Shown: positions 13,432 to 54,894 of the stretch, one piece after another
How the letters are laid out: every line of letters starts with the position of its first letter
Numbering within the stretch: position 1 is the first letter of the stretch
Program-made: the position numbers and the translations under genes
Virus record (IMG/VR): IMGVR_UViG_3300023269_000002
Coordinates: 1 to 55,701 of that record
Source of the DNA: a virus
Taxonomy: Duplodnaviria > Caudoviricetes
Reading direction: 5' to 3' (one strand)
Length of the DNA: 55,701 bases
The notes under the pieces: model-generated
The model's input: the letters and a program-made list of their open reading frames with translations, nothing else
Database searches by the model: none
Told to the model about the DNA's origin: nothing

Positions 13432-14268
13432 TCAGCCGGACGGCGTTGGGACGCACGTCCAGATGTCCTGCGGAATCTGCTCCGCAGGGTTGTCCGGGTT
13501 CGGCCTGGTGAGCACACCGCGCACCAGCGTGAACGAGCCTTTCCCCGCGCACAGCAGAGATGGGTTCTCCTGCGCGGCCTGGCTGAACGCGGCCATGATC
13601 TCCGCGCCCGTGGGTGGCGGTCCGGTGTCGCCCTTGTCGCCCTTCGCGCCGGGGTCGCCGTTCTTTCCGTCCTCGCCGTCCTCGCCGTCCTCGCCGTCGG
13701 TGCCGTCTCGCCCGTCGGTTCCGTCCTCGCCGGGGGGTGGCGGGTTGCTCTGCAGGTAGTCGGCGACCCGCGCGGACACCAGCTCCGGCGGCACGGTAAC
13801 GGGGTTGGCCAGGAAGTAGGAGGCGACCGCGCGGCCGAGCGCCTGCGCGTCGCGGGTCGAGTCCTCCGACAGCGAGGCCAGCACGCGAGCCGTCGCCGCG
13901 GCGACGAGCGTCTCCGGCGCGTTGTCCTCCGACGGCGCGGGCAGCGCGACCGGCTCCTGCCCACGCCGCTTGAGTTCCTCGTTCGCGAGCTGAGCGGCCG
14001 CGTACGCCTGCTCGGCGCGCTGGCGCGACTCGTTACCCGCCTGCTGGGCAGCAGAGGCCACAGCGCGCGTGTTGGCCGCCGAGATGGCGGCAGGCACGGA
14101 GACCGCGATAGCCACGGCGGCAGCGAACAAGCCGCCGACCGTGACCATCTTCCACACGTCGGTGCGGTCGGCCTTCCGACTGAGCGCACCCCCAACGGTT
14201 CGGGATGCCGCAAGTCCGACACTGAGCGTGTCGCGTACCTCGTTCGGCTGGCGCTCGGTGTCCGTCAT
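13432..14268 (-). CDS. Membrane protein with collagen-like Gly-X-Y repeats
   Basis: N-terminal TM, coiled coil, GEDGTDGRDGTDGEDGEDG... repeats and C-terminal Cys pair. Confidence 0.75.
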   Translation of the reverse strand: MTDTERQPNEVRDTLSVGLAASRTVGGALSRKADRTDVWKMVTVGGLFAAAVAIAVSVPAAISAANTRAVASAAQQAGNESRQRAEQAYAAAQLANEELKRRGQEPVALPAPSEDNAPETLVAAATARVLASLSEDSTRDAQALGRAVASYFLANPVTVPPELVSARVADYLQSNPPPPGEDGTDGRDGTDGEDGEDGEDGKNGDPGAKGDKGDTGPPPTGAEIMAAFSQAAQENPSLLCAGKGSFTLVRGVLTRPNPDNPAEQIPQDIWTCVPTPSG

Positions 14269-23859: not shown

Positions 23860-24437
23860 GAGCGCGCCGCTGCCAGCTCGCGGGTCCGGGCCTTGAGCAC
23901 GTCGACCGTCATCGCCTCCGCGTCCTCGTCGCTGACCTCCGGGTCCAGCGCGCGGAGGTGCGCCTTCCACGCAGCCTTAGGCGCGCTCGCCACGGGACGC
24001 ACGAGCGCCTCCGCCGAGATCGCGTCGAGGTCGGCAGCGAGCGCCCCGCCCTCTTCCACGTCGACGTGCTCGTCCGCCTGGCGGGCGCGCAAGTCGCGCA
24101 GCGTCGGCGCGTTGTCGCCGTACTCGTCCTCGTCCTCTTCGCCCTCGGCGAGGCTCGTCTCGTCGAGTTCCTCGTCGGTGCCGTACCGCTGCAACAGGTC
24201 GCGGTACTCGGCGCGCCGGTTGAGCAGCTCCTCGGCGAGCCACGGGTCGAACTCGCGCGCCTGCTCGTCCTCGAGGCCGAACGTGGCCAACATGAACGGC
24301 CACAGCTCGAGCAGCGACTGCAGCTCGGCGTCGGTGATGTCCGGTGGCGGCACCTCGCCGCGCGGCCGCACCTGCCTCCCCGCGTTCACGGGGTGGTGCG
24401 GCGAGTCGTACGGGGCGAACGGGTCGACGAACGTCAC
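23856..24437 (-). CDS. Hypothetical acidic virion-module protein
   Basis: GGAGG RBS; GTGA overlaps. Confidence 0.65.
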   Translation of the reverse strand: MTFVDPFAPYDSPHHPVNAGRQVRPRGEVPPPDITDAELQSLLELWPFMLATFGLEDEQAREFDPWLAEELLNRRAEYRDLLQRYGTDEELDETSLAEGEEDEDEYGDNAPTLRDLRARQADEHVDVEEGGALAADLDAISAEALVRPVASAPKAAWKAHLRALDPEVSDEDAEAMTVDVLKARTRELAAARS

Positions 24438-25990
24438 GGCAGGTTCCTCCGGTTGGTGCGCGGGACATCGGGGCTGTAGACGCGGGCCCGTTGCGGGCGG
24501 TTGTGGGGGTTGATGGCCTTCACCCACAGGTCGACGGAGCGCAGGCCGGTGAGCCCTTTCTCGAGGAACTCGTTCGGGTCCGCGTAGGTGGTGGTGACCT
24601 CTTGGCGGGTCAGGCTGGTGACGTTGCTCGGCAGGCGGCACCCGGCGATGCCGTGGAAGTCGCGGGCGAACTCGACCCCCAGGGTCACCGCGGCGTCGCG
24701 ACCTCCTGCGGGGGGCGCTTCGCCGTAGGTGTAGACGATGACGGTCTCGCCTGCGCACACCTGCCAGAGGCCGCCGTCCGTGCGCTCGAGCACGCCAGCG
24801 TGGTTCAGCCGGTAGGCGGTCGGGTCGAGCAGGACGCCCTCGACCGTCACGGAGGTGATGGCCTGAACGGGCGAACGGGGCAGCTTGACCCGACGCGGCT
24901 GGGCGATGTGGTCGACGACCGAACCGGACGTCATCCAGCATGGGCACTCCCCCCATGACGAGTGGGTGATCCAGTCGCCGCGCCACGGTGCGGAGGTCGG
25001 CAGCGAGCGCAGCGTGACCTCCTCGCTGCAGCCGATGCCGTACCAGATGCGGCCGGTCAGCATCCACAGCAGCTCGCTCGCCCGCATGAGCTGCACGGCG
25101 AGCTGGTCGTCGGTGATGCCGAGTTCGGTGCGGATGGCCGCGGGCACGTCGGCGGGCGTCGCCCAGGGGGCGCACAGGACCGGCGACACCACGGCGGGAA
25201 TCGGTCCGGTCACTGGTCCCCCTGTCGATGAACTGGCCAGCACGAGCGCGCTGGTCCGGGCAGAACCGCGGATCGACTCGCCGAGCGCGGCACCCCCCAG
25301 CGTAAGGGGTGATGTCCGGGCGGAGGCCGCCCGCTTCTCGCCGACCTCGAGCGTGGTCAGGGTGAGGCTGGTGCCCGTGGTCGAGTCGACCCGTTTCGCT
25401 CCGCCGATCGTGGTCGCGAGCACCACGGTTGTGGTGCCTGCGCCGGTCGGTTCCTCGGCGGTCGGGTCTACGTCGGTGACGGAGACGTCCATCCAGTAGT
25501 TCCCACCCCCGAACGAGTTGTCCGGCATCCGGGGCACGGCGTCGTAGTTGAACGAGCCCTGATCGGACGCGGTCGCCGTGGCATCGTCCGGCGCGACGAG
25601 GAACCCGTTCGTGATACCGGAGCCGCCTGGTCCCGCCCCGGTCCAGTAGCCGCCGGTCGCGGTGTAGTTGGACGGGAAGTGACCGGCCACCCGGTAGGCC
25701 TGCCCAACCGTCAGCGGCACAGGGGTCACGAGCGGGAACTCACGCCACCCAAGGGTGGCACCCAGCACGGGCGCGGACAGCTCGGCGAGCACGGTGCCCG
25801 TGGTGGCCGAGTCCACCCGGTACAGCCGCAGGTTGTCCGGCTGGACGTCGATCGTGCCGCGGTAGAACCACAGCGAGGTCACCCAGGCGGGAACGGTCAC
25901 CTCGAACTCGGTAGCCAGGTTGATTGCCTGGCCGTCGCTGCCGGAGGTGTTCGGTCCGTTGATGGCCGGCCAGATCCTCTGGACCGTCAC
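24434..25990 (-). CDS. Head-tail adaptor fused to an N-terminal DUF4082-like beta domain
   Basis: N-term NLATEF.V...LWFY...GWREFPL..PV.L...NYWMDV; C-term ASELLW.LTGR...C.LPSNVTSLTRQ.V...TGL..VDLW...NP. Confidence 0.75.
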   Translation of the reverse strand: MTVQRIWPAINGPNTSGSDGQAINLATEFEVTVPAWVTSLWFYRGTIDVQPDNLRLYRVDSATTGTVLAELSAPVLGATLGWREFPLVTPVPLTVGQAYRVAGHFPSNYTATGGYWTGAGPGGSGITNGFLVAPDDATATASDQGSFNYDAVPRMPDNSFGGGNYWMDVSVTDVDPTAEEPTGAGTTTVVLATTIGGAKRVDSTTGTSLTLTTLEVGEKRAASARTSPLTLGGAALGESIRGSARTSALVLASSSTGGPVTGPIPAVVSPVLCAPWATPADVPAAIRTELGITDDQLAVQLMRASELLWMLTGRIWYGIGCSEEVTLRSLPTSAPWRGDWITHSSWGECPCWMTSGSVVDHIAQPRRVKLPRSPVQAITSVTVEGVLLDPTAYRLNHAGVLERTDGGLWQVCAGETVIVYTYGEAPPAGGRDAAVTLGVEFARDFHGIAGCRLPSNVTSLTRQEVTTTYADPNEFLEKGLTGLRSVDLWVKAINPHNRPQRARVYSPDVPRTNRRNLP

Positions 25991-25994
25991 GGGC

Positions 25995-26333
25995 TCAGCC
26001 CGTCGCCGTCTCGGTCGGAGTCAGGCCGTAGGTGCCCGGCGCGCCGTAGGTCTCCGGCGCGGGCAGCGCTCCGCCCGTGACGAAGCTGCCGCCGGAGGCC
26101 AGCGACCAGACGCTGTAGTGGGTGTATGGACCCCCCGCGGGCACGGGGATGAGCGCCTGTGTGCCGACCGAGCTGCCGCCGGAAGGCGCGCCCCAGGTGG
26201 TCTGGGTGCGGGTCACCCCTGCGCCCTCGTTCGCGCCGGTCGTTCCGGGGTCGCCCGTGTTCAGGCTGCACCAGTTGCCGAGCGCCGTCACCGCGGCAAC
26301 AGCCGCGTTGCGGGCGGCTACGGAGTGGGACAT
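25995..26333 (-). CDS. Small virion structural protein
   Basis: SL.TGDPGTTGANE...R....W...THYSVW....GG.F motif common in phage virion modules. Confidence 0.7.
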   Translation of the reverse strand: MSHSVAARNAAVAAVTALGNWCSLNTGDPGTTGANEGAGVTRTQTTWGAPSGGSSVGTQALIPVPAGGPYTHYSVWSLASGGSFVTGGALPAPETYGAPGTYGLTPTETATG

Positions 26334-26360
26334 CGTCGGAGCCTTCCTCTGCTGTCGGGA

Positions 26361-26391
26361 AGGGGGCGACGGCCCATGAACCGTCGCCCCC
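26361..26391 (-). terminator. Hairpin after the major tail gene
   Basis: AGGGGCGACGG...CCGTCGCCCC(C). Confidence 0.6.
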
Positions 26392-32206: not shown

Positions 32207-32264
32207 ACGGGCACGACCACGACGGCTAGAGTCAGCGCGCGGAAGTGGTAGCCGTCGAGGTGCA

Positions 32265-32302
32265 GAAGGGCCCGCGCCCCTGGGGAGAGGCGCGGGCCCT
32301 TC
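32265..32302 (-). terminator. Hairpin
   Basis: GAAGGGCCCGCGCC...GGCGCGGGCCCTTC. Confidence 0.65.
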
Positions 32303-32312
32303 GTCGTGCCGA

Positions 32313-32528
32313 TCAGTCCTTCGCGAACGTCAGCGTGAACGCGTCGCCGACCTCGACCTCTTCGGCGACCTCGCTCTTCACCGTCATGCCCAGGCTGAGC
32401 GCCGGGGTCGCCTCCGCCCACTCCGCGTTGCGACCCTGGTCGTAGTCGGGCCGGAACTGCAGGCTGACCTGTTGCCCGTGCTCGAGCTTCGACTCGACGA
32501 CCACCTTCGCCGTGAACCTCTTCGACAT
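32313..32528 (-). CDS. Small beta-rich hypothetical protein
   Basis: GGAGGAG RBS; N.EWA.ATP..L.M.V...G..F.L.F. Confidence 0.7.
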   Translation of the reverse strand: MSKRFTAKVVVESKLEHGQQVSLQFRPDYDQGRNAEWAEATPALSLGMTVKSEVAEEVEVGDAFTLTFAKD

Positions 32529-32530
32529 GG

Positions 32531-34942
32531 TCACTCCTCCGTAGCCTTTGCCTTCTTGGCTTCCCACTCCTCGACCGCGGCACACGCCTCCGCGCGACTT
32601 CCCGCGTTCACCTCCTGGCTACCGGGCCAGTTGGTGTCGCCGGTCGAGCACATCTTCTTGGCCGCGTTCACCGCCGTGGCGATGGCCTGCGACTGGTCCA
32701 TCCCCTTTTCCTGCAGGTGCTTCGCGATGCGCTTGATGTACTTCGGCAGGCCGCCCGCCTTCTCCACCCAGTTGGCGAGGTCGTCGACCAGCGGAGGCCA
32801 GTCCGCGAACACCTCGTCCAGCTCGGCGAGCGCGCCCTCGTGCAGCGCGCCCACGTCGACGAGCGCGTCCAGCTCGGCGAGGGCGGCCGCCTGGCGCTCG
32901 GCGAGCATCTTCTCGCGGGCCCAGGCGAGCAGCTCGCGGTCGGCCCGGCTGAGGCCGAGCTGCCCGTCCGGCACGTTCGCGGGCAGAGCGCCAGCGGCGA
33001 CGAGCGAGATGGGTGCGCCGGACGCGACACGGGCCCGCGGCACGGGGAAGCCGGGCACGTTGACGCTGAGCACGGCCACCATCTCGAGCTGTCCGCGCAC
33101 CGCTCGCCAGTCGCCGGACGCGGCGGACGCTCGGAACCGGTGAAGCTGCTCGGCCGTGAGCGTGCCGCGCACCACCCCGGATGCCCAGATGCCGTGCTCG
33201 CCGTCGGTCAGCCGGACGTCGGCGGCCGCGGTGCCGGTGTGGTCGTAGTGTCGCGCGGCCATCTGCGCGTTACTGGTCAGCTCGGCGTGGCTGGCGTCGA
33301 GCGTGATCTGCCCGACCGCCAGCTCGCCCGCGTCGGTGAGCACCGCGCCCGTGTGGAAGTACGCATACCCGGACGGCGACCGGGGGGCGGTGCGGCACTG
33401 ACCGGGGAAGCCGATGTGACACACCCCCCAGGCCGCGATGTGGCCGGACAGGTAGTGCCTGCCGTCGGGCCCCTCGGTAATGGCCAGCGCCTGCGGGCCG
33501 TCGGGCTCCGGGATGTGGAAGGCCTCCGCCGGCAGGGGCGGGGGGGCGATGGCGGCGACCATCGGCTCGCCCCCGCCGAGCGGGTAGTCGGTGACGTTCC
33601 CGCCGAGTGCGACGCGCAGCCGGTCGAAGGTCACGGGACCGGTGAAGTTGAGCGCGCTCGGCTCAACTCCGTAGCCCGCGGTGACGTGGGGCTCCCAGCG
33701 CTCGTGCTGCTCCGGGAATCGCAGCTCGCCGAGCAGCTCGCGCAGTCGGTAGACGACCTCCGACTGAATCGCTTCCGCCGTGCCACGCTGCTCCGACCCG
33801 TCGAAGAGGTAGACCGTCGCCGGGTCCTGCCCGTCCGCACCGCCGTTCGGGTTGAACAGGGCGTGCGCGAACACGTTCAACGTGACCGGCCCCATCTGGC
33901 CAGGGCCGCGGTAGTCGCCGACGGCGACCTCCTCGACGGGCCCGCCGGGCGCGCCCTCGAGCGAGTGATCCGTGATGCTCAGCGCTCGCTGATGCACCGC
34001 GGCGACGATCTCGCCATCCCAGCCGGTGACGTCGTCGCCGAGGTAGGCCAGCGTCATGTGCAGCTCTTCGGCCGGGTCGCCGCCGGGCACGGCCAGCAGC
34101 GTCGGGTCGGCTGGCACGAGCGCCACCATGCCGCCCGTGTGGGCAGGCTTCTCGTCCGGCTCGACCTGCACGTCCGGGTCGGCCTCGCTGCCCGGAACGA
34201 TGTCCTCCTCGCCGTCCGCCAGGCCCAGGCCGAGCGCGCACGGGGCGCAGTGCGAGTCCAGGCCGATCGCGCGGAACGACACGGCGGACGCCGTGATCAC
34301 CTGCCCGCCGTCCGGGACCATCAGCTCGCCGTCGACCTCGACGTACGCGTCCGCGAACGCAGGCTGCGCGACCAGGGTGCTCGCCGCGATGACGGCCTGC
34401 ATCATCCGCATCCGCGAGGGACGCTCGTTCGGGTCGTCCGGGTTGGAGTCCTCCGGGTACTCGAGTTCCACGACCAGGTCCGACAAGTCGACGGAGTTCC
34501 CGGAGAGCGCCCGGTCCATCACCATCTGGTAGGCGCTCTTGCCCTCCGGCACGTCCGGGTACATCCAGCCTTTCCCGGACCAGACGAAGGTGCCTTCGGG
34601 GAACGGCTGGCCGGTCGTCTTCTGCACGACCTCCGGGCCCGGTCGGCGAACCATCTCGGTGATCGCGCCGACGATGTAGGCGTTGTCGTGGCCTCCGCCC
34701 CCGCCGTCCGGGGTGCGCACCTGGGCGAGCAGCGACAGGGGCAGCGCCCGGTGGCTGATGCCTCCGGGCTCGAGCCAACGGCCGTCGGCGGTGTCCATCC
34801 CCTCGATCGCCATCACGGGCAGGCTGATCGGCTTCGCGCCCTCCGGCATCGTGGTCGGAGCCGCGGGCAGCTCCTCGGCCGGGACGTCCTCGACGGGCAG
34901 CTCCTCGTCGACTTCGGGCGCTTCGATCGTAGGTGCCGTCAT
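32531..34942 (-). CDS. Multidomain capsid maturation protease with embedded 2H phosphoesterase domain
   Basis: Between portal and capsid; N-term EG..T.DGR...LPL...H...VG.I...SVD...PAF..A domain; HMTLAY and HVTAGY motifs; further domain GHIAAW..CH...SGDWR...VN.PGF. Confidence 0.75.
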   Translation of the reverse strand: MTAPTIEAPEVDEELPVEDVPAEELPAAPTTMPEGAKPISLPVMAIEGMDTADGRWLEPGGISHRALPLSLLAQVRTPDGGGGGHDNAYIVGAITEMVRRPGPEVVQKTTGQPFPEGTFVWSGKGWMYPDVPEGKSAYQMVMDRALSGNSVDLSDLVVELEYPEDSNPDDPNERPSRMRMMQAVIAASTLVAQPAFADAYVEVDGELMVPDGGQVITASAVSFRAIGLDSHCAPCALGLGLADGEEDIVPGSEADPDVQVEPDEKPAHTGGMVALVPADPTLLAVPGGDPAEELHMTLAYLGDDVTGWDGEIVAAVHQRALSITDHSLEGAPGGPVEEVAVGDYRGPGQMGPVTLNVFAHALFNPNGGADGQDPATVYLFDGSEQRGTAEAIQSEVVYRLRELLGELRFPEQHERWEPHVTAGYGVEPSALNFTGPVTFDRLRVALGGNVTDYPLGGGEPMVAAIAPPPLPAEAFHIPEPDGPQALAITEGPDGRHYLSGHIAAWGVCHIGFPGQCRTAPRSPSGYAYFHTGAVLTDAGELAVGQITLDASHAELTSNAQMAARHYDHTGTAAADVRLTDGEHGIWASGVVRGTLTAEQLHRFRASAASGDWRAVRGQLEMVAVLSVNVPGFPVPRARVASGAPISLVAAGALPANVPDGQLGLSRADRELLAWAREKMLAERQAAALAELDALVDVGALHEGALAELDEVFADWPPLVDDLANWVEKAGGLPKYIKRIAKHLQEKGMDQSQAIATAVNAAKKMCSTGDTNWPGSQEVNAGSRAEACAAVEEWEAKKAKATEE

Positions 34943-37803
34943 GGCCGCTTACCTCCGAGGAATCGTGCCTGCAGGGTCTGAATCTGCTCGTGCTGGTCGC
35001 GCATGATCTGCGCCGTGGTGCCGGTCCGACCTGCCGCGTCGTCGCTCTCGGCGAGCTTGATCAGGTCCGCCATCTCGCGGGTGGGGACCGCCAGGCGCTC
35101 GCGCACCTGCTCGGCGTAGGCCGGTACCGCGTAGGCCGGGACGAAGTCGCACATGCAGCCGCGGTGATCGCCGGGCCGGAAGTGCGTGCCCACCCACGCG
35201 AATTTTCCGCTGTAGACGGTGGCCGTCTCGAGCTTCGGGTCCGACCAGTCGGCGAACTTCGCGCCCTCGAGGTCCCAGTGCGGGTCGAACTTCCGCGGGT
35301 CCAGGGTGATGCCGTACACCCACAGGTAGCCCAGCTCGACCGCGCCGTGCTGTTCCATCTCGCGCCGGACGGTGTCCCCGTTGGCGAGCCCGCCGACGGG
35401 TTCCCCGGTGACCGACCGGCCGTAGTCGTCGAGCCCGCCGGAGGTCTCCGGGAGGCCACCGACGATGGCGAGCGCGGTGCGCAGCAGGTACGGCGGGACC
35501 GCGCCGGGGGGGATTTCGCCGGGCAGCTCCTCGTCGTCCTCGCCGTCGAAGAGCAGCTTCGACGCCCGGTCGCGCAGGCCGTCGTGCAGCCGCGACCAGC
35601 CGTCGTCGACCCTGCTGCTCATGTCGTCGCGCATCCGCTTCGCCGCGGCGCGTCCGGCGCGCGACTCGGCGTCGAGGCCGAGGAGCTGCAGCACGCGCTC
35701 GACGACGTTCTCGATCGCGGCGAGCACCCACTTCGCGAACAGGGTGCCGAGTTGGGCGAACGCCTCGCGCAGCAGGTGGTCGTCGTCGGCGTTGAGCGCG
35801 AGGGCACGCTCGCGGCCGATGCGCTGGCCGAGCACGAGCACGCTCATGCCGCGCAGGCTGGCGGACAGCTCGGCGTCGGCGGTCGCCTTGCCGCGCAGGC
35901 GAGCCCCGGCGACCTCGAGCGCACGGGTCATGGCCGCGTCGCAGGCGGCGAGGAGGGTGTCGCGCAGGGTGCGGTCTACCTCCATGAGTCGGCGGGACTC
36001 GTCGAGGGCGACGCGGTACTGCTCCTCGTCCTGGTGCTGGCGTCCACTTGGAACGGTCGCGAAGGCCTGTCCGGACAAGCCGAGATAGGGCACCTGAGGT
36101 GCAGTGACCCTCATGAGAGCGCTCTCATGGGCACTCGCCGCGATGGCAGGTGGTGCCGTGCTCGGCACCGTGCCGGGCCCATCCGCCGGACCGGCCGGAG
36201 CGGGTGCCGGCGCGGCCGAGGGGAGAGCCTGGCGCGGGGCATCCTGCTCGCCCACCGCGGGAAACTCGAACGGCTGGTCCGGGTCGTTGGCTACCAGGTA
36301 GCGCAGCAGCGCGGTCGCCGTGGCCTGGTCGAAACCGGCCTTGAGGGCGACCATCTCGACGACCTCCTGCGGCGTCGGCGCGTCGCCGTCGTTGAAGCCG
36401 AGCGCGCGCCGGAACGACGCGTTGCCGATCGCGCCCTCGCGGCGTGCGTCGAGCGCGTCCTGCCGCCGGTTCGGGTTCTCGGTCAGGGTGCCGAGGTCGT
36501 ACCAGGTCCGGACCTGCCGCACCTGGTCGATGGGGAAACCGCGCTTGAGCAGAGCCGCGCGCAGCAGCGCCCCGGTCAGGCTGTCCGCCATGAGCCGGAC
36601 GCCGGGCTCGATGTGGTGGCGCGCGGTCGAGGCGTCGATCTGCCACGCGGTCCAGTGGTTCGCGTCCCCCATCCCCTTGAGGATCTCCGGGGGGATGTCC
36701 ATCCCAGCGGCCAGGCGGCCGAGACATGCGGCGAGCTTGTCGTTCAGCTCCTCCGAGTCCTCGCGCTCGAGCCGCTCGTGACGCCACGCCTGGATGTCCT
36801 CGATGCTGCCGGTCAGCACCACGGGCACCGTGCCGCCGGGGTCGCCCTCGTTCGCGATCGGCGCGTTGATCGCTTCGGTGAACTCGGCCATGAACGGCGA
36901 GTCCTCTTCGTCGCCGTCCGCGTCCTCGCGCACGTTGCGCATCATCGTCATGCCATCGGGCATCAGGATTACGCCGTTGGCCATGATCCGGGACCGCATC
37001 ACGGCGCGCATCTCGCGGCCGATGAGGCAGATGTCCTCCATGGTGCCGATCATCGCGTGCAGCGCCGAGTCGGCGAGGTGGCTCCGGCGCGGGTGCGGCA
37101 CCCACAGCCGGTACAGCTCCTCGCCGCCCTCGTCGGACAGGTCGATCCGCCGGCCGATTCCGCCGGGCACGGTCTCGTCGATCAGGTGCACGGTCCGGCC
37201 GTCGGTGCCGAACTCGACCTCGTCGACCGAGCGGATCTTCCACTGCTCCTCGCCGGTCCACTCGTCGTAGAACCCGTGCAGGTAGCACTCGCCCGCGACG
37301 TCGAAGTTCTCCGACCAGACGCCGAGGAACTGGTACCCCGCGTCGAGCGGCAGGCGGGCGAGTTCCTCCTCGGCGGCCGCGCACAGAGCTGGCGGCAGGG
37401 TGATCCGGGCGCGCTTCTCGGCGTCCTCGTCGTTGCGCAGGGACAGCGGGATGGGCTCGTCGTCGTCGCCGATGATCTGGGCGGCGAAGAACCGCACGCG
37501 GCTGATCGCGCGGGCCCGGTACTGCAGGCCGTAGCGCAGTTCGCCGATCATGTCCCGGTAGCCCCAGGCCAGTGCCTGCCACTGCTGGCTGCGCCTGCCC
37601 GCGATCAGCGAGCGCACGGCGTCCGGGTTGCTGCTGTCGATGCGGGCCCCGGACGCGCGCATCACCTTCGGAGCCGTGCGCCGTGGCTCGCCTGGGCGCG
37701 CGGCGAAGGCCGCGGCTGCAGGCTCCCTGGGCAGGGGGGCGGCCGCGGTAGCCGCCTGGCGGTAGGCCTGGGCGGCTACTCGGCCCCGTTCGGTCACGGG
37801 CAC
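34939..37803 (-). CDS. Portal protein fused to MuF-like domain
   Basis: WQ..AW...IGEL.Y...V.GE.Y...R.W.PHP...ADS...D.PPE.L.G...NHW.AW portal pattern; C-term DH.GC.C; AGGAG before GTG 37803 (alternative ATG 37839). Confidence 0.85.
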   Translation of the reverse strand: MPVTERGRVAAQAYRQAATAAAPLPREPAAAAFAARPGEPRRTAPKVMRASGARIDSSNPDAVRSLIAGRRSQQWQALAWGYRDMIGELRYGLQYRARAISRVRFFAAQIIGDDDEPIPLSLRNDEDAEKRARITLPPALCAAAEEELARLPLDAGYQFLGVWSENFDVAGECYLHGFYDEWTGEEQWKIRSVDEVEFGTDGRTVHLIDETVPGGIGRRIDLSDEGGEELYRLWVPHPRRSHLADSALHAMIGTMEDICLIGREMRAVMRSRIMANGVILMPDGMTMMRNVREDADGDEEDSPFMAEFTEAINAPIANEGDPGGTVPVVLTGSIEDIQAWRHERLEREDSEELNDKLAACLGRLAAGMDIPPEILKGMGDANHWTAWQIDASTARHHIEPGVRLMADSLTGALLRAALLKRGFPIDQVRQVRTWYDLGTLTENPNRRQDALDARREGAIGNASFRRALGFNDGDAPTPQEVVEMVALKAGFDQATATALLRYLVANDPDQPFEFPAVGEQDAPRQALPSAAPAPAPAGPADGPGTVPSTAPPAIAASAHESALMRVTAPQVPYLGLSGQAFATVPSGRQHQDEEQYRVALDESRRLMEVDRTLRDTLLAACDAAMTRALEVAGARLRGKATADAELSASLRGMSVLVLGQRIGRERALALNADDDHLLREAFAQLGTLFAKWVLAAIENVVERVLQLLGLDAESRAGRAAAKRMRDDMSSRVDDGWSRLHDGLRDRASKLLFDGEDDEELPGEIPPGAVPPYLLRTALAIVGGLPETSGGLDDYGRSVTGEPVGGLANGDTVRREMEQHGAVELGYLWVYGITLDPRKFDPHWDLEGAKFADWSDPKLETATVYSGKFAWVGTHFRPGDHRGCMCDFVPAYAVPAYAEQVRERLAVPTREMADLIKLAESDDAAGRTGTTAQIMRDQHEQIQTLQARFLGGKRP

Positions 37804-37813
37804 GTCGTCGCTC

Positions 37814-38143
37814 CTATTCGTCGTGCGCGGATGCGACACCGACCACGGCGCTCACGGCGAGCACGGTGGACAGCGGCCTCCACAGGGGAGCCAGCTCGGG
37901 CGTGCTGGCGACGGCGACCACGGCGGCCGAGATCCAGAAGCCAGCGCACCAGGCGCAGTAGGTGAGCGGCAGCAGCGGGTGCTCCTCGCCGTCGGGGGCT
38001 CGCTCCTCGAGCGCGGCGACGGCGGCCTCGCGGGCGTGGATCACTCCGGGGAGGCTGTCGCGCAACCACAGGCGGGTGAGCCGAAAGGCCGCGGCCGCGG
38101 TCACGGCGACGGTGAGCGCGTCGCGGGTCCACCTGAGGTTCAC
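37814..38143 (-). CDS. DUF1360-like membrane protein
   Basis: A.FRLTRL..D...L..C.WC.GFW. Confidence 0.75.
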   Translation of the reverse strand: MNLRWTRDALTVAVTAAAAFRLTRLWLRDSLPGVIHAREAAVAALEERAPDGEEHPLLPLTYCAWCAGFWISAAVVAVASTPELAPLWRPLSTVLAVSAVVGVASAHDE

Positions 38144-38592
38144 GCCTGCGCCTCCTGTTCCACCTGGTCCGGCCACGCCTGGATGACGCTCGCCCACGGG
38201 GGGGTCCACGACTTCATCCGGTGCGCCGAGCAGGGTGCGCAGATGGCCTGCGGCAGGATGCTCGGCGTGCCGTACTCGGTCTCGATCGTGAACCCGCTTG
38301 CCGCAATCGTGCCGGACGGCGGGCGGGGCGTCTTGTCGTAAGCGACCGGCGCGTACCAGGTGGGCTCGTTCATCGAGTCGCGCGGGTTGTCCGGCGCGCG
38401 GCCGAACACGTAGAGCCCGGTGTCCGCGGCGAAGACCTTCGCCTTCCGCACGACTTCGCCGCCGGGAAGCGTGACGATGGCGGGGAACCACGATGCGTAG
38501 ATGTGGTTCGGCATCGGGGCGGGCGGGCGGGGTGGGTCCACCGTGAGAGCGGTTCCACGGCGGGGGGTCGGGCGGGGCACGCGTTGCGGCAT
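38140..38592 (-). CDS. Hypothetical protein, first gene of the virion operon
   Basis: GAGGAG RBS before ATG 38592. Confidence 0.65.
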   Translation of the reverse strand: MPQRVPRPTPRRGTALTVDPPRPPAPMPNHIYASWFPAIVTLPGGEVVRKAKVFAADTGLYVFGRAPDNPRDSMNEPTWYAPVAYDKTPRPPSGTIAASGFTIETEYGTPSILPQAICAPCSAHRMKSWTPPWASVIQAWPDQVEQEAQA

Positions 38593-38635
38593 CCGGAACT
38601 CCTCGAGTCGGGGGTCCGGTGATCGTAACGGCAAA

Positions 38636-38664
38636 CACCCCCGACCCTGTGGGGGTCGGGGGTG
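38636..38664 (-). terminator. Hairpin
   Basis: CACCCCCGACCC...GGGTCGGGGGTG. Confidence 0.6.
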
Positions 38665-38670
38665 CGAGGT

Positions 38671-38701
38671 GGGATGCATTCATAGCCGATGAATACATCC
38701 C
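38671..38701. repeat. AT-rich palindrome A
   Basis: GGGATGCATTCAT-AGCCG-ATGAATACATCCC. Confidence 0.85.
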
Positions 38702-38712
38702 CTTCGGGCGGG

Positions 38713-39174
38713 TCAGTCGCAGAAGTGAAGCTGCTCCCAGGCCAGCCACATCGGCCGGTCGCGCCCCTCGAACGCGACCATCGCGCCGGGGCCCGCCTTC
38801 TTCACGATGGTGCCGAGGGGGAGTTCGGCGGCAAGGTCGCCGTCGTGCTCGCCCGTGGCGACCACCTGGACGATGTCGCCGGGGCGCGGATCGTTCGCCC
38901 GGACCCGGAGGTCGAGCGCGAAGTCCTCGGCCGTCTGGCACTGCGCCTCGAGGCAGCAGTCCTGCTTCTGCCCGTGCTCGCACACGGCGACGAAGTAGGC
39001 GCAGAAGTCGCCGAGGAAGACCATCGCCTCGCGGCCGCTGGCGACGTCGACCAGGTAGACACTCCGGTCGGCAGGGTGGCCTCCGGCCTCCTCGATGGTG
39101 TCGACCGCGGCGAAGCGGTAGACCGTCTTGCTGTCGTAGGGGCGGACGTGGAGGGCGGGCGTCGTGTTCGTCAT
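38713..39174 (-). CDS. Hypothetical protein (leaderless, MTNTTPA...)
   Basis: ATG 6 nt after the -10; Cys-rich middle, SH3-like C-terminus. Confidence 0.7.
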   Translation of the reverse strand: MTNTTPALHVRPYDSKTVYRFAAVDTIEEAGGHPADRSVYLVDVASGREAMVFLGDFCAYFVAVCEHGQKQDCCLEAQCQTAEDFALDLRVRANDPRPGDIVQVVATGEHDGDLAAELPLGTIVKKAGPGAMVAFEGRDRPMWLAWEQLHFCD

Positions 39175-39180
39175 GTGGCA

Positions 39181-39209
39181 ACCATACCCCCCACCGTGGG
39201 GGGTGTCAA
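39181..39209 (-). promoter_or_regulatory. Operator-spacer promoter, leaderless
   Basis: TTGACA-CCCCCCACGGTGGGGGG(17)-TATGGT-6 nt-ATG. Confidence 0.88.
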
Positions 39210-39220
39210 ATCGGGAGGGG

Positions 39221-39245
39221 AGTACATTCATAGCCAATGAATACA
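39221..39245. repeat. AT-rich palindrome B
   Basis: AGTACATTCAT-AGCCA-ATGAATACA. Confidence 0.8.
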
Positions 39246-39261
39246 ACGCCCGCCAAGCAAA

Positions 39262-39290
39262 TGCCCCGCCGGAGGGTCTCCGGCGGGGCA
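39262..39290 (-). terminator. Hairpin
   Basis: TGCCCCGCCGGAG...CTCCGGCGGGGCA followed by TTTG on the minus strand. Confidence 0.7.
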
Positions 39291-39304
39291 GGCGGGCAGA
39301 TGGC

Positions 39305-39541
39305 CTAGCGGATCATCTCGCGAGGCAGGCGAACGATGTGGTCCACCCCGTCCGCGTCGCGCAGGGTAGCGGTCGTCATCCGGGCCCCCGCGGGGGCGGG
39401 GTCGACGGCGATGATGGTCCCGGTCACGACGGCCGTGCCGCGACGGGTGCCGACCAGCTCGAGGCCTGCGGTGATGCCGATGACCTTGCTCGTGTCCGGG
39501 AAGGGGAGGGGGGCGGGGGCTGCGTTCTCGTTGTTGGCCAT
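39305..39541 (-). CDS. Hypothetical protein (leaderless, MANNE...)
   Basis: ATG 6 nt after the -10; followed by a hairpin. Confidence 0.7.
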   Translation of the reverse strand: MANNENAAPAPLPFPDTSKVIGITAGLELVGTRRGTAVVTGTIIAVDPAPAGARMTTATLRDADGVDHIVRLPREMIR

Positions 39542-39547
39542 GAGAGA

Positions 39548-39577
39548 ACCATACCCCCCACGGTGGGGGGGTGTCAA
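39548..39577 (-). promoter_or_regulatory. Operator-spacer promoter, leaderless
   Basis: TTGACA-CCCCCCCACCGTGGGGGG(18)-TATGGT-6 nt-ATG. Confidence 0.88.
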
Positions 39578-39614
39578 ACCAGAGTGTTCCACGTCACAAG
39601 GTTGGGATCTGGTG

Positions 39615-39643
39615 TTGACACCCCCCACGGTGGGGGGTATGGT
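39615..39643 (+). promoter_or_regulatory. Operator-spacer promoter, leaderless
   Basis: TTGACA-CCCCCCACGGTGGGGGG(17)-TATGGT-6 nt-ATG. Confidence 0.88.
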
Positions 39644-39649
39644 TTGGGT

Positions 39650-39862
39650 ATGACGAAGAACGAGATCCTCGCAGCCGCCACTTCCGCCCAGCGCACCCAG
39701 GTCGCCCGCACCGAGAAGGACATCATCGGGACCGGGTCGAAGATCCGCCTCAGCATCCCGCAGGAGGGCTTCGTGCGCATCACCGAGACGCCCGCCGAGG
39801 GCGACCGGATGGCCTTCGACATCTACCCGGACGGCGCGGTCAGCGACCCGTTCTACGTCTAG
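39650..39862 (+). CDS. Hypothetical protein (leaderless, MTKNE...)
   Basis: ATG at the predicted TSS; hairpin after the stop. Confidence 0.7.
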   Translation: MTKNEILAAATSAQRTQVARTEKDIIGTGSKIRLSIPQEGFVRITETPAEGDRMAFDIYPDGAVSDPFYV

Positions 39863-39875
39863 CCAGCAGCCCACC

Positions 39876-39907
39876 AGGGCCCGCCCCCAGCTCAAGGGGC
39901 GGGCCCT
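39876..39907 (+). terminator. Hairpin
   Basis: AGGGCCCGCCCC...GGGGCGGGCCCT. Confidence 0.65.
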
Positions 39908-39920
39908 TCCGTCTGACCTG

Positions 39921-39950
39921 GATTTGATTCATGTCAAATGAATACATCCC
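39921..39950. repeat. AT-rich palindrome C
   Basis: GATTTGATTCAT-GTCAA-ATGAATACATCCC. Confidence 0.8.
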
Positions 39951-39959
39951 CCTCCCGAT

Positions 39960-39989
39960 TTGACACCCCCCACCATGGGGGGGTACGCT
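39960..39989 (+). promoter_or_regulatory. Operator-spacer promoter, leaderless
   Basis: TTGACA-CCCCCCACCATGGGGGGG(18)-TACGCT-6 nt-ATGACGAAC. Confidence 0.85.
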
Positions 39990-39995
39990 ATGGGT

Positions 39996-40316
39996 ATGAC
40001 GAACACGACGCCCGCCACCGAGACCGACGCCCCGCTCGCACCGTGCGGCCGCCCGAACCGCTGCATGATGAGCAAGCGCTGCGAGCCCTGCACCATGCTC
40101 ACCCTGTCGACCATGCGCCTCGAGCTGGTCGAGCTGTGGCACGAGCACGGCGTGATCTCGACCGACGCCCGCGACGCTTACCGCCACGTGTGGGCCATCT
40201 CGGCCACCCGGAGCAAGGCCTACGACCACTGGATGGGCCTGCCGGACGGCGAGGACGCCCAGCGCATGGCGAAGATTCTGGTCGAGATCCTGCCCAGTGG
40301 CCGCGGCTACGCCTAG
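39996..40316 (+). CDS. Hypothetical protein (leaderless, MTNTTPA...; four Cys)
   Basis: ATG at the predicted TSS; hairpin after the stop. Confidence 0.7.
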   Translation: MTNTTPATETDAPLAPCGRPNRCMMSKRCEPCTMLTLSTMRLELVELWHEHGVISTDARDAYRHVWAISATRSKAYDHWMGLPDGEDAQRMAKILVEILPSGRGYA

Positions 40317-40322
40317 AACTGA

Positions 40323-40365
40323 ACGCCAGCCCCCCCGACCGCGGCATGGTCGGGGGGGCTGGCGT
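40323..40365 (+). terminator. Hairpin
   Basis: ACGCCAGCCCCCCCGACC...GGTCGGGGGGGCTGGCGT. Confidence 0.7.
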
Positions 40366-40376
40366 GTCCGCCTGGC

Positions 40377-40403
40377 GATGCATTCATCGGCTATGAATGC
40401 ATC
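40377..40403. repeat. AT-rich palindrome D (inverted copy of A)
   Basis: GATGCATTCAT-CGGCT-ATGAATGCATC. Confidence 0.85.
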
Positions 40404-41050
40404 TACCGTTCGAACTTGATCGGGTTCTCCCGCTCGCCTTCGTCATCCTGCGCCGTCGCCCGGAGCACGCACTTCCACCGGGTGCGCAGGTGCAGGCCAT
40501 CCCAGTCGCGCGCCTGCTCGTCCTCGTCCACGAGCTGCAGGCGCTGGCCGTTGATGAGCGTCCACCACCAGCGCCCGTCGGGCAGGCGCGAGGCCTGGTC
40601 GCCCTCCTCGTCCTCGACGCGCAGCACCTCGTCCGACGGGCGCACCTTCGACCCGTGCCAGCGCACGGCCAGCCGCGAGGGCTGGTCGAGCTTCTCGGCG
40701 AGGGCCGCGGCCTGCTCAACGGCAGGCGTTTCAGCAACGCGGTTATAATTCGCGTTCGGCACCCACCCCCGGTCAGCGCGCAGCACGGCCTCGCTCACGG
40801 GCGGCACGACCTCCGGCGCGACCGGCTCCGGGTTCAGCCGCGCGCGCAGCTCGCCGAGACGGCGCTCGCGGATGGACGCCACCCACTCGAGCGAGCCGTT
40901 CGCCTTCCGGCCGATCTCGCGCAGCAGGGGGCCGCTGGCGTGCGCCCTCACGGCCAGCTCGGCGAACGCGTCGAACAGCTCGAGGGCACGGTTCTCGACG
41001 TCCTCGCAGCGCGCGGTCAGCTCGACCACGCGCTCGGCCTCGCCGGTCAC
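40403..41050 (-). CDS. Hypothetical protein
   Basis: GTGA overlap with the upstream gene. Confidence 0.6.
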   Translation of the reverse strand: MTGEAERVVELTARCEDVENRALELFDAFAELAVRAHASGPLLREIGRKANGSLEWVASIRERRLGELRARLNPEPVAPEVVPPVSEAVLRADRGWVPNANYNRVAETPAVEQAAALAEKLDQPSRLAVRWHGSKVRPSDEVLRVEDEEGDQASRLPDGRWWWTLINGQRLQLVDEDEQARDWDGLHLRTRWKCVLRATAQDDEGERENPIKFER

Positions 41051-52627: not shown

Positions 52628-52657
52628 ACGGTAACACCCCCCACGGTGGGGGGTCTA
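52628..52657 (-). promoter_or_regulatory. Operator with extended -10 promoter
   Basis: TAG-ACCCCCCACCGTGGGGGGT-GT-TACCGT-6 nt-ATG. Confidence 0.75.
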
Positions 52658-53098
52658 GATGGGGAGGCCGAGCGCCGTCCGCTTGGCGACCATGTTGCGC
52701 ACCGTGGCCGTGTCCTCGCGGTACATCCGCCCCGACGGCGAGCGCCAGCGGGTGCCGGACTGGTCGGTCATCTTCGACCAGTCCGCAGGCGAGTGGGTGC
52801 GCCGGGTGTTCGGGTTGCGCGGCCGGCGGATGCGCTGCTGTGGCGCGGCCGCCAGGGGGTCGCCGGGCACGTGCGCCGTGAGCGCGTCCAGGTCGTAGAC
52901 CTCGGCGCGGGCCCGCGCGTAGGACGCGATCTGCACCTCCTGAAAGGCCGTGTGCAGGCTGCGCAGGACGTCGCCGGGGTTTGCTGCCACAGCAGCCCAG
53001 CCGCGCGCCTGCGGGCTGCTGAACCGGTAGCCGCCGGTCGGCAGGGTCTCGACCTGCAGCATGATCGCGGACGGCTGGTGTGGAACTCGGCGGGTCAT
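52655..53098 (-). CDS. Hypothetical protein downstream of terminase
   Basis: ATGA overlap with terL; W.SPSGR.Y motif. Confidence 0.7.
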   Translation of the reverse strand: MTRRVPHQPSAIMLQVETLPTGGYRFSSPQARGWAAVAANPGDVLRSLHTAFQEVQIASYARARAEVYDLDALTAHVPGDPLAAAPQQRIRRPRNPNTRRTHSPADWSKMTDQSGTRWRSPSGRMYREDTATVRNMVAKRTALGLPI

Positions 53099-54894
53099 CG
53101 CCACCCCCTGCTGCCGACGCTGGTCGTGGGCACCTGCTGCGCCTGGCGGACACCCCCGTGCCGCTGCAGGTCCGGGCCGGACGCCCGCTGCAGTGAGCCG
53201 CCGTCGGAGCGCGACAGCTCCGTGAGCAGGTGGACGTTCGCGTCCATCCGGTTGGGCGACTTCTGGGTGACCTGCCACGTGGACATTTCGTGTTCGAGCT
53301 GGGCGAGGTGCCCGACGTGGGACACCTCGCGGTTGTCGTACAGCGGGGCGATGAACTCGGCGCGCTGCGTCTTGCTGCCCTTCGCCGTGACCGACTTGAG
53401 CGGGGGCCCCGTGCGCGGGGCAGAGCGGATGGCTCGCACGTACGGCCAGAGCTGGACCAGCTTCTGCCGCTGCGCCATCGCGTCCTGCTTGTCGTCCTCC
53501 TCGCGGGCGAGCATCTCGCAGGCGACCACCAGCACGGCGGCACGCGGGTGCTGATCGCGCTCCGGGAACACGGCGTCTTCCCCGTGCACGTGCTTCCACG
53601 CGGCGACCAGCACGCGCGCCTCCTCGCGGACGCGCTTCCACGTCGAGGCCGCCGAGCGGCGAAGGCCCGAGAGGCTGGCCTCCCAGCACACGGCGGAGGC
53701 GTCGAACTCGAAGCACGCGAGGTAGGCGCGCCGGAACCACTGGTCGATCGTGTAGTGCCCTGACCAGTCGGCGAGCACGGCATACCGGCCGTCGGTCGAC
53801 ACGCCGCCGACGATGATGCCAGCCTCGTCGCCGTCGCCCTCGTTGTCCGCGGGGTCCACCATCACGAGGGTGCGCTTCATCGGCGGCCGCTCGGTGAGCC
53901 GGTCGCGCCGGAACCACTCGCGCTGGAACACCCCGCCCGCGGGCGGAGCCGGGCGCTGCTGGTACATCGCGAACCACCAGCGCGAAGTGCCGCGGCCCTG
54001 GGCTTTCTTGATCTTCTCCCAGTCCTCGGCGGTCCGACCTCGAGCCGAGACCATGAACTCGCCCGGCTTGCGGCCGAGGGGGTCCTCGCCGATCGGGGGC
54101 TGCGCCTCCGGGTCCGGCTTCATCGCCTGCGCGGCGACGGCCACCTTCCGCCAGGCGGGTGCGTCCGGGTCGTCCTCGGCCTCGAGCCACCCCGCGAGAT
54201 CCTGCTCGTGCCACCTGGTCTGAACCACGATCACGATCGCGTCGGAGGACAGGCGGGTCGACGCGACGGCGAGATACCAGTCGATGACGTTCTGCCGGAT
54301 CTTCGGGGAGTCCGCGGCCTGCGCGTCCTTGATCGGGTCGTCGATGAACAGGACGTCCGCCGGACGCCCGGTGAAGCCGGAGCCCACACCGACGCTGATC
54401 ACACCTCCGGGCAGCGGCAACGTGGGCGTCTTCGCGAGAGCCCACTTCGTCGCCTCGCCGCGGACCGGGTCCAGCGCGAGGCCGAGGACGTCCTTACGGT
54501 CCGCGTCGCGGCGAGCGCCGAGGTAGCCGGAGCCGTGCGTCTCGAGGTACTGGCGCACGGCGAGGCCGGACACGCGGGCGAGCGACTGCTCGTAGGAGGC
54601 GAACGCGATGCGCCTGGTCGGGTCGCGCAGCAGCAGCCACAGCGCGGCCGCCTGGGCGCGGGTGCTCTTGCCCTCCTGCGGGGGGCAGTTGATGATCCAA
54701 CGCCGCTGCTCGCCCTTGTCGGCGAGGACGATGGCCTCGTCGAACTTGTCCAGCATCGGGGTCTGGACCGTGTCGTTTCGGACGAAGCGCGCCAGCTCGC
54801 CGGGGGTGGGGAAGCGGAGCAGGGTCTCGTTCGGCTTCGGGTTCACCCGTTGTTCGAACCGGTCCGCGAGGCGCGAGAACAGCGCGGACGTCAC
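53095..54894 (-). CDS. terL: Terminase large subunit
   Basis: INCPPQEGKS (Walker A), TGRPADVLFIDDPIKD, QTRWH..DL.G, YQQ.P, nuclease VDPA...DEAG...PNR.DA. Confidence 0.93.
   Translation of the reverse strand: MTSALFSRLADRFEQRVNPKPNETLLRFPTPGELARFVRNDTVQTPMLDKFDEAIVLADKGEQRRWIINCPPQEGKSTRAQAAALWLLLRDPTRRIAFASYEQSLARVSGLAVRQYLETHGSGYLGARRDADRKDVLGLALDPVRGEATKWALAKTPTLPLPGGVISVGVGSGFTGRPADVLFIDDPIKDAQAADSPKIRQNVIDWYLAVASTRLSSDAIVIVVQTRWHEQDLAGWLEAEDDPDAPAWRKVAVAAQAMKPDPEAQPPIGEDPLGRKPGEFMVSARGRTAEDWEKIKKAQGRGTSRWWFAMYQQRPAPPAGGVFQREWFRRDRLTERPPMKRTLVMVDPADNEGDGDEAGIIVGGVSTDGRYAVLADWSGHYTIDQWFRRAYLACFEFDASAVCWEASLSGLRRSAASTWKRVREEARVLVAAWKHVHGEDAVFPERDQHPRAAVLVVACEMLAREEDDKQDAMAQRQKLVQLWPYVRAIRSAPRTGPPLKSVTAKGSKTQRAEFIAPLYDNREVSHVGHLAQLEHEMSTWQVTQKSPNRMDANVHLLTELSRSDGGSLQRASGPDLQRHGGVRQAQQVPTTSVGSRGWR

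Follow-up and report, generated by a model that had tools for sequence, protein, structure and literature searches.

What are four closely similar AT-rich palindromes doing in a short island of small gene cassettes, at positions 38,671 to 40,403 of the tailed-virus record IMGVR_UViG_3300023269_000002 (Duplodnaviria; Caudoviricetes)? The stretch of DNA analysed here, hereafter the window, is the complete virus record of 55,701 bp, with ~70% G+C. A preliminary description of its sequence had depicted the island as a mirror-symmetric set of four cassettes, and had proposed that the palindromes belong either to an invertible or cassette-shuffling segment or to sites flanking the physical ends of the genome. 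Our analysis leads us to a different answer. We give about an even chance to the reading that the palindromes are operators, bound by a protein and carried on a mobile promoter module, inside a hyperplastic array like the promoter-early stem-loop (PeSL) regions of T4-type phages. The shuffling of the cassettes is probably an evolutionary process that works through repeated modules, and not a programmed switch.

The pattern ATTCAT-N5-ATGAAT, with at most one mismatch, has exactly four matches in the window, at 38678, 39226, 39927 and 40382, and these are all confined to 38.67-40.40 kb of a 55.7-kb genome. The number expected by chance is 0, as no match appeared in any of 100 shuffles. Because the window is the whole virus record, the genome holds no further copies, and the earlier statement that the motif occurs nowhere else stands. 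We refer to the four sites, from left to right, as A to D. Site A (38673-38699) is the reverse complement of site D (40377-40403) at 26 of 27 positions, within an inverted pair of 30 nt at 93%, and the centres read AGCCG in A, AGCCA in B, GTCAA in C and CGGCT in D; both features had been described before and were reproduced. However, with arms that are themselves palindromic, the two sites can also be aligned as direct repeats, with 23 of 27 positions in agreement, and just three bases of the centre favour the inverted relationship. The arms of A are 11 bp long with one mismatch and those of D form a perfect 11-5-11 palindrome, while the arms of B and C are short, with 7-8 paired bases each. 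The half-site centres are 11 bp apart, in a 17-bp core made of two 6-bp half-sites, which is the symmetry required of an operator for a dimeric regulator.

The case for a regulatory site comes from the promoters that some of the palindromes accompany, and from the state of both in close relatives. With the portal as query, viral and metagenome contigs yielded L005, a 55,553-bp record with assembly terminal repeats whose portal is 97% identical to that of the window, and L126, a 13.2-kb contig with a portal 93% identical, together with many further relatives in which the portal is at most 55% identical. The island itself was compared with three related genomes and with contig fragments. The window contains a repeated promoter composed of TTGACA, a palindromic spacer CCCCCCACNGTGGGGGG (C6-N5-G6) and TAnGGT, with 12 matches at 11 places and a twelfth place, promoter P2 (in order of position: 9091, 32206, 39209, 39577, 39615, 39960, 41809, 43613, 45740, 50861, 52287 and 52631/52659). 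Among 193 loci this motif is limited to the window, L005 and L126. Four promoters lie in the island, as the preliminary description had it: P1 (39181-39209, minus strand), with TTGACA, the 17-nt spacer CCCCCCACGGTGGGGGG and TATGGT; P2 (39548-39577, minus strand) and, divergent from it, P3 (39615-39643, plus strand); and P4 (39960-39989, plus strand), with TTGACA, an 18-nt spacer and TACGCT. P1, P2 and P3 agree with the sigma-70 consensus at 10 of 12 positions, and P4 was read from the sequence and the alignment. In most promoter copies, P1 included, the ATG comes 6 nt past the -10 box, which predicts a leaderless mRNA, and the opening codons, ATGACGAAC (Met-Thr-Asn), are conserved across otherwise unrelated genes. 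The palindrome in the promoter spacer could itself be an operator.

Where a palindrome accompanies a promoter, its position is fixed. We aligned 11 promoters of the window (10 of the 11 places plus P2, the overlapping pair at 52631/52659 being left out) with two from relatives, and the palindrome accompanies two of the 11, namely P1 and P4. Site B (39221-39247, core 39226-39242) has its centre at -60 of P1, and the short-armed site C (39922-39948, core 39927-39943) has its centre at -61 of P4. Beyond the window, the palindrome accompanies P1 of L005 and an extra promoter, Px, of L126. In all five promoter-linked copies (B and C of the window, B of L005, and the copies of A and B in L126, the last of these decayed) the core is separated from the -35 box by 16 nt. 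No promoter is attached to A and D of the window, or to D of L005. Moreover, the B core is identical at 17 of 17 positions between the window and L005, while the adjoining 16-nt linker differs at six positions with no insertion or deletion. An identical core beside a linker that drifts in sequence and keeps its length points to selection on the core and on its distance to the promoter. For B, C and the L126 copy of A, a protein-binding regulatory site is, as far as sequence can tell, the best reading, because of the operator-like geometry, the fixed position at -60/-61 and the conservation of the core next to a drifting linker.

The surroundings of the sites are just as regular in their parts. 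Genes were called with a map of open reading frames based on third-position G+C (GC3), followed by profile searches of 76 predicted proteins in Pfam and PHROGs, 51 of these also in NCBIfam. A GC-rich stem-loop is found 7-18 nt from every site (fold z -4.7 to -8.2), which confirms the hairpins reported earlier. On the left, ahead of the structural operon (gene 38140-38592, then the portal gene), is hairpin hpA (38635-38665, minus strand), a GC-rich 13-bp stem that L005 and L126 share without change. Site A is 7 nt from hpA, after the stop codon of a leaderless cassette gene for a 153-residue protein (38713-39174, minus strand), which is conserved in L005 and L126 and has no family match in Pfam, PHROGs or NCBIfam (the best Atlas score, 0.85, is at chance level). 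P1 and site B follow, and then hpB (39262-39290, minus strand), the terminator-like hairpin of a leaderless gene for 78 residues (39305-39541, minus strand) that is driven by P2 and has no counterpart at that place in L005 and L126. Beyond the divergent pair P2 and P3, a leaderless gene for 70 residues (39650-39862, plus strand) ends in its own terminator-like hairpin, hpC (39876-39907, plus strand), and is followed by site C, P4 and a leaderless gene for 106 residues (39996-40316, plus strand). Hairpin hpD (40323-40365) has a 19-bp GC-rich stem and is related to hpA (71% direct, 77% inverted). Site D, to its right, abuts the stop codon of the gene for a 215-residue protein (40403-41050, minus strand; the GTG start at 41050 was placed from homologues).

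Seen in this detail, the island is mirror-symmetric only in its inner part. The B-P1 and C-P4 modules are indeed 56-nt inverted repeats, at 80%, but A and D both stand to the right of their own hairpins, with A between stop codon and hairpin and D after the hairpin, so that A with hpA and D with hpD make up direct repeats. The claim that the cassettes hold the only plus-strand genes between 13 and 55 kb is borne out by the GC3 map, where 39650-39862 and 39996-40316 are the sole convincing ones; the short plus-strand open reading frames at 26149-26379 and 32245-32445 may be genes as well.

A comparison of cassette content in relatives, which the preliminary description had recommended, reveals that the gene content is not fixed and that the breakpoints coincide with palindromes. 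The whole L005 genome has only two sites, B and D, and is without A and C. Between hpA and the 153-residue gene, where A would be, it has an extra gene with a weakened promoter. The cassette beside B in L005 is a homologue of 39650-39862 (46% identity, E 1e-20) on the other strand; the 106-residue gene is missing, a different plus-strand gene precedes D, and D itself is at the same place, with the centre CGTCT. L126 has an extra gene with a full promoter, Px, and its copy of A lies 16 nt upstream of the -35 box of Px. The centre of that copy, CGGCT, is the reverse complement of the AGCCG of the window, and one arm carries a mismatch; the B copy of L126 has a decayed distal arm. Thus the homologues of 39650-39862 lie on opposite strands in the window and in L005 and L126, beside B in the latter two, and each time the gene is followed by a hairpin and then by a palindrome. 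Similarity between the window and its relatives ends directly after B, at its right edge, and resumes at the left-hand border of D. What lies between the sites, and in which orientation, varies among the relatives, as expected for an exchange of cassettes, and the motifs delimit the insertions, deletions and replacements that separate close relatives, as in PeSL regions. Finally, the A junction of the window resembles the arrangement in L126 minus the extra gene and its promoter, and this comparison supports the view that A would be the remnant of a module whose promoter was lost or turned.

Further arrangements were found in sequencing runs, which we compared as assembled contigs; contigs drop rare variants. 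None of the runs listed as containing the sequence is an RNA data set. In X1, the likely source run, the whole stretch is present in one contig of 55,592 nt, with the island in the window orientation only, and contigs of this kind cannot show minor forms. This contig starts near window 13.67 kb, in a different circular permutation, so that the window ends are probably assembly ends and not physical ends; neither assembly ends in the island. The break of the X1 contig, at window ~13.56-13.67 kb, falls near a gene that resembles a collagen-repeat tail fibre (13432-14157). Run X7 contributes an L005-like contig of 55,456 nt that runs through the island. In X2, a 208-nt contig carries a window-like A junction with two differences; owing to one of them, the palindrome of A is perfect there. 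A 1,292-nt contig of the same run joins a homologue of the 106-residue gene (42 differences in 339 positions), inverted, to hpA and the start of 38140-38592, with the joint corresponding to window 38662/40316, and another contig has L005-like sequence to the left of D. Homology of the X2 and X7 contigs with the window begins at D (40377/40379). These contigs show additional cassette arrangements in nature and are silent on switching within one population. The depth of the X2 flank contig (30.5) is close to the sum of two alternative continuations (14 and 16.9), which hints at co-existing genotypes; the second contig is ~88% identical and may stem from a more distant phage.

How could such an arrangement work? 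For the operators, we infer that the palindromes would be bound by a dimeric DNA-binding protein of the phage or of the host, their geometry being like that of helix-turn-helix operators. The palindrome would be an optional upstream part of a module that consists of palindrome, 16 nt, TTGACA, palindromic C6/G6 spacer, TAnGGT, 6 nt and ATGACGAAC. A protein at B and C would sit at -60/-61 of two leaderless promoters, as an upstream activator or, alternatively, as a repressor that acts by looping. Sites A and D would be the same element without a promoter, either as remnants of cassette loss or strand change or as outer anchor or roadblock sites; they could also be outer looping sites of high affinity, or roadblocks between convergent units. 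The presence of either centre orientation at the orthologous site A, AGCCG in the window and CGGCT in L126, is neutral for a symmetric dimer. As a whole, the island would be an array of single-gene units, each with its promoter, leaderless gene and hairpin, that are gained, lost, replaced and flipped among relatives. The exchange probably takes place by recombination at the repeated and partly palindromic modules of promoter, hairpin and palindrome. The promoter spacer, hpA, hpD and the AT-rich sites are all palindromic, which could permit exchange in either orientation.

Several points weigh against this operator reading. A and D, which are the longest and best palindromes, are free of promoters, so that a pure promoter-element reading accounts for only two of the four. 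Common descent of duplicated modules may be part of the reason for the constant 16-nt spacing, and a site-specific exchange, too, would produce breakpoints that fall exactly on the edges of the palindromes. The comparison is narrow, with only the three related genomes and the contig fragments. A dispersed repeat that shares the palindrome in the bacterium Labedaea rhizosphaerae (see below) is not obviously linked to promoters, and it fits a mobile or hairpin-type element as well as an operator. In addition, no family match for a helix-turn-helix protein was obtained at the thresholds used and no cognate binder was identified; nor was ParA, ParB or a recognisable repressor found among the 76 proteins. 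The 215-residue protein next to D is a candidate DNA binder, in which helices 40-49 and 54-72 look, by eye, helix-turn-helix-like, but the model has low confidence (mean predicted local distance difference test score, pLDDT, 50.7). This protein has strongly conserved N- and C-terminal domains with a variable linker between them, and 11 homologues, all in this phage group; it has no family match in Pfam, PHROGs or NCBIfam. When it was used to search for related loci none was returned, and its alignment returned the L005 contig only. Elsewhere in the genome, the product of 3398-4138 (minus strand) contains a Bro-N domain and resembles DNA-damage-inducible protein D (NCBIfam E 3.6e-35, under the curated cut-off), and it is among the few predicted DNA-binding proteins of the phage.

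Beyond the closest relatives the palindrome disappears and the promoter arrays do not. In four relatives with portals ~50% identical there is no palindrome with up to two mismatches. Two of these four, L007 and L012, were examined for repeats: upstream of the portal each has an array of repeated promoters of its own, which are leadered and all point in the direction of the portal gene (3142-7270 in L007 and 3800-8786 in L012). These promoters read TTGACACCC...GGGGGTACAGT, and their leader and ribosome-binding region are conserved. Cassette arrays with several promoters thus characterise the wider group, and the palindrome is, on the present sequence comparison, an addition within one small clade. 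A scan of viral contigs for the pattern gave 40 loci, one of which is the L005 contig; the other 39 are single-copy and are probably chance matches in AT-rich contigs. A megablast search of the island against 50,697 phage records gave zero matches, and cultured phages reach at most 31% identity in a tblastn search with the portal, so that the phage has no annotated close relative. In a limited search of the literature we found no description of the palindrome element.

The alternative that survives best, and that we regard as possible although unlikely, is that the palindromes work as nucleic-acid hairpins, similar to repetitive extragenic palindromic (REP) sequences. As twin stem-loops with the GC-rich hairpins they would end or stabilise transcripts and insulate the cassettes, and they would be copied from, or shared with, a dispersed repeat of host type. 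The presence of a GC-rich hairpin close to every site is consistent with this idea, and A and D, together with their hairpins, fold as twin stem-loops on the minus-strand transcripts of 38713-39174 and 40403-41050 (z -6.5 to -8.2). It is also consistent with the bacterial repeat mentioned above. An extended palindrome scan, with one genome per species, gave 20 loci, one of them in the high-GC actinomycete Labedaea rhizosphaerae; the other 19 are in taxa that we take, mainly from their names, to be low-GC (the sequence of one was read), and they were treated as chance. In the Labedaea copy, L210, all 22 of the 22 arm bases are the same as in D, and both this copy and D lie between convergent genes. 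The Labedaea genome has nine exact and eight one-mismatch copies of the 17-bp pattern (control, 0), and the palindrome there is one box of a dispersed extragenic repeat with ~17-19 copies. A second palindromic box follows ~78 bp away (19 copies at up to three mismatches; control, 0), and three units ~146 bp apart form a tandem array (L218 1480-1900; G006 contig 3, ~737.2-737.7 kb).

Other observations do not suit a hairpin of this type. Sites B and C lie between a terminator-like hairpin and a promoter and would be transcribed only by read-through, their arms of 7-8 bp are short, and an RNA hairpin needs no exact 16-nt distance to a -35 box. No Rfam family was matched near the sites or by the Labedaea repeat. 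The second Labedaea box was not found in the phage, and neither the phage promoter motif nor the 215-residue protein was found in the Labedaea genome. Any match to the palindrome occurs, in the samples searched, in 5 of 151 genomes of the same order and in 5 of 401 of the same class, with more than two copies only in Labedaea, so that the motif is not a widespread regulon. The proposal to look for the site in host genomes has yielded dispersed copies in one bacterial genome, and at the level of sequence we regard the shared palindrome as a pointer to a host lineage and a host factor that falls short of proof of either.

The second alternative, close to what was first proposed for this locus, is that the palindromes are crossover sites of a site-specific inversion or exchange, shufflon- or integron-like, with an unrecognised recombinase of the phage or one of the host. 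We consider this improbable. It would fit the inverted match of A with D, which covers 26 of 27 positions and extends to the asymmetric centre, the loss of homology precisely where B and D have their outer edges, a homologous cassette on opposite strands in the window and in L005 and L126, followed each time by hairpin and palindrome, the opposite orientations of the A centre in the window and in L126, and a palindrome that is part of a dispersed and possibly mobile repeat in Labedaea. However, no integrase, invertase, recombinase or transposase is found among the 76 proteins scanned in Pfam and PHROGs (51 of them also in NCBIfam), many of which are of unknown function, in line with the earlier remark that no recombinase is recognisable. 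The cores of tyrosine recombinase sites have centres of 6-8 nt, and serine recombinases need an even centre with a 2-nt central stagger; the 5-nt centre of odd length seen here is unusual for the former and unfit for the latter. The four centres differ from one another, where identical overlaps would be expected, and the left breakpoint, which falls between the divergent P2 and P3, has no palindrome. The flipped cassettes are 46% identical while the portals are 97% identical, which argues for replacement and not for a recent flip. The single orientation in the X1 contig, a weak test, and the fixed promoter spacing, which suits a regulator site, are further points against it. What stands of the original proposal of an invertible or cassette-shuffling segment is its evolutionary side, since content varies and breakpoints fall at the sites, and what does not is the programmed recombination, given the missing recombinase, the odd 5-nt centres and the fixed spacing. 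In a related version, which we hold to be quite improbable, the palindrome would be the recognition or crossover site of a small mobile or recombining element common to an actinomycete chromosome, where it is a dispersed repeat, and to its phages. If such a mechanism did exist, an unrecognised host or phage recombinase would invert, excise and insert cassettes of promoter, gene and hairpin, and this would be an integron- or shufflon-like system in an actinophage of lytic type.

The remaining proposal concerns the genome as a whole. Its large terminase gene (53095-54894, minus strand) was recognised by profile search, and it is followed, from 52.6 down to 40.4 kb, by ~30 small minus-strand genes of unknown function. 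The portal gene (34939-37839, minus strand) comes next, and the capsid and tail genes after it reach as far as 13 kb. Erf and SSB belong to a plus-strand block at 5-12.7 kb, and a DnaC-like loader and an endolysin are encoded at 0.5-2.6 kb, the replication genes (Erf, SSB, DnaC-like) together spanning 1.7-9 kb. The terminase and portal genes are ~13-15 kb apart, with small genes that have their own promoters between them (40.4-52.6 kb), which is an unusual layout for a tailed phage. Two structural proteins are composite: an 803-residue protein (32531-34942, minus strand) matches portal, maturation-protease and RNA-ligase families of PHROGs, and a large 518-residue protein (24434-25990, minus strand) has DUF4082 fused with a head-tail adaptor. 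That the sites are physical genome ends, a packaging site, a plasmid-type centromere or a replication origin is very improbable: four palindromes are clustered just upstream of the portal operon, and clusters of repeated palindromes are typical of centromeres and origins, but the large terminase and its upstream partner are 13 kb away, the replication genes lie at 1.7-9 kb, the proteins scanned include no ParA or ParB, the terminal repeats of the L005 assembly are located elsewhere, that closest relative keeps two of the four sites, and the permuted X1 contig and the 55,456-nt X7 contig, two independent assemblies, are continuous through the island and lend no support to the claim that the sites flank the genome ends.

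Among known systems, the nearest in geometry are operators. The dimeric helix-turn-helix regulators CI and Cro of phage lambda bind 17-bp operators, and class I-type activator sites are centred at ~-61.5. Sites B and C share with them the symmetric 17-bp core, the odd centre, half-sites one helical turn apart and a position ~60 nt upstream; they differ in that no cognate protein is known here, two of the four sites are promoter-free, and the arms of A and D extend to 11-13 bp. With the Hin, Gin and Cin inversion systems, the Rci shufflons, integrons and Xer/dif, the island has in common the inverted arms, the asymmetric centre and the variable content and orientation of cassettes, whereas here no recombinase gene was found, the 5-nt centres are odd and non-identical, and the contig of the likely source run shows one orientation. 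REP sequences and bacterial interspersed mosaic elements (BIMEs), like the Labedaea repeat, are extragenic palindromes, many of which lie between convergent genes or behind stop codons. Site D matches a copy of that two-palindrome repeat exactly in its arms, but the phage carries the first box only. This identity with a repeat of one Pseudonocardiaceae genome could lead to the host and to the binding protein, and it raises the question of whether phages borrow repeat elements of their hosts as regulatory or recombination signals.

In the Bacillus operator of the TetR-family regulator FadR, ATGAAT and ATTCAT half-sites are bound by a dimeric regulator (PMC5397183). The order and spacing of the half-sites differ from those of the palindromes and the organisms are unrelated, so that this case is only a reminder that regulators do use such half-sites.

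For the island as a whole, the closest parallel is offered by the hyperplastic regions of T4-type phages, where repeated cassettes of promoter and stem-loop, the PeSLs, mediate the insertion, deletion and replacement of small genes (PMC2839356, PMC4122927). In both, small genes of unknown function are set apart by repeated motifs of promoter and stem-loop, and insertions, deletions and replacements between very close relatives are bounded by these motifs. They are unlike in several respects: the host here would be of the high-GC actinomycete type and the phage has a tail module of the long non-contractile type, the promoters drive leaderless genes and have a palindromic spacer, some modules have an additional AT-rich palindrome, and one cassette is found on both strands. 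If the operator reading is correct, this group of uncultured actinophages would assemble its early or accessory region out of leaderless gene units that are complete in themselves, and some of these units would be under the control of one extra factor that binds the palindrome. The island would then be a compact, testable model of accessory-gene regulation and exchange in high-GC phages, and the PeSL idea would extend from T4-type phages of Gram-negative hosts to actinophages.

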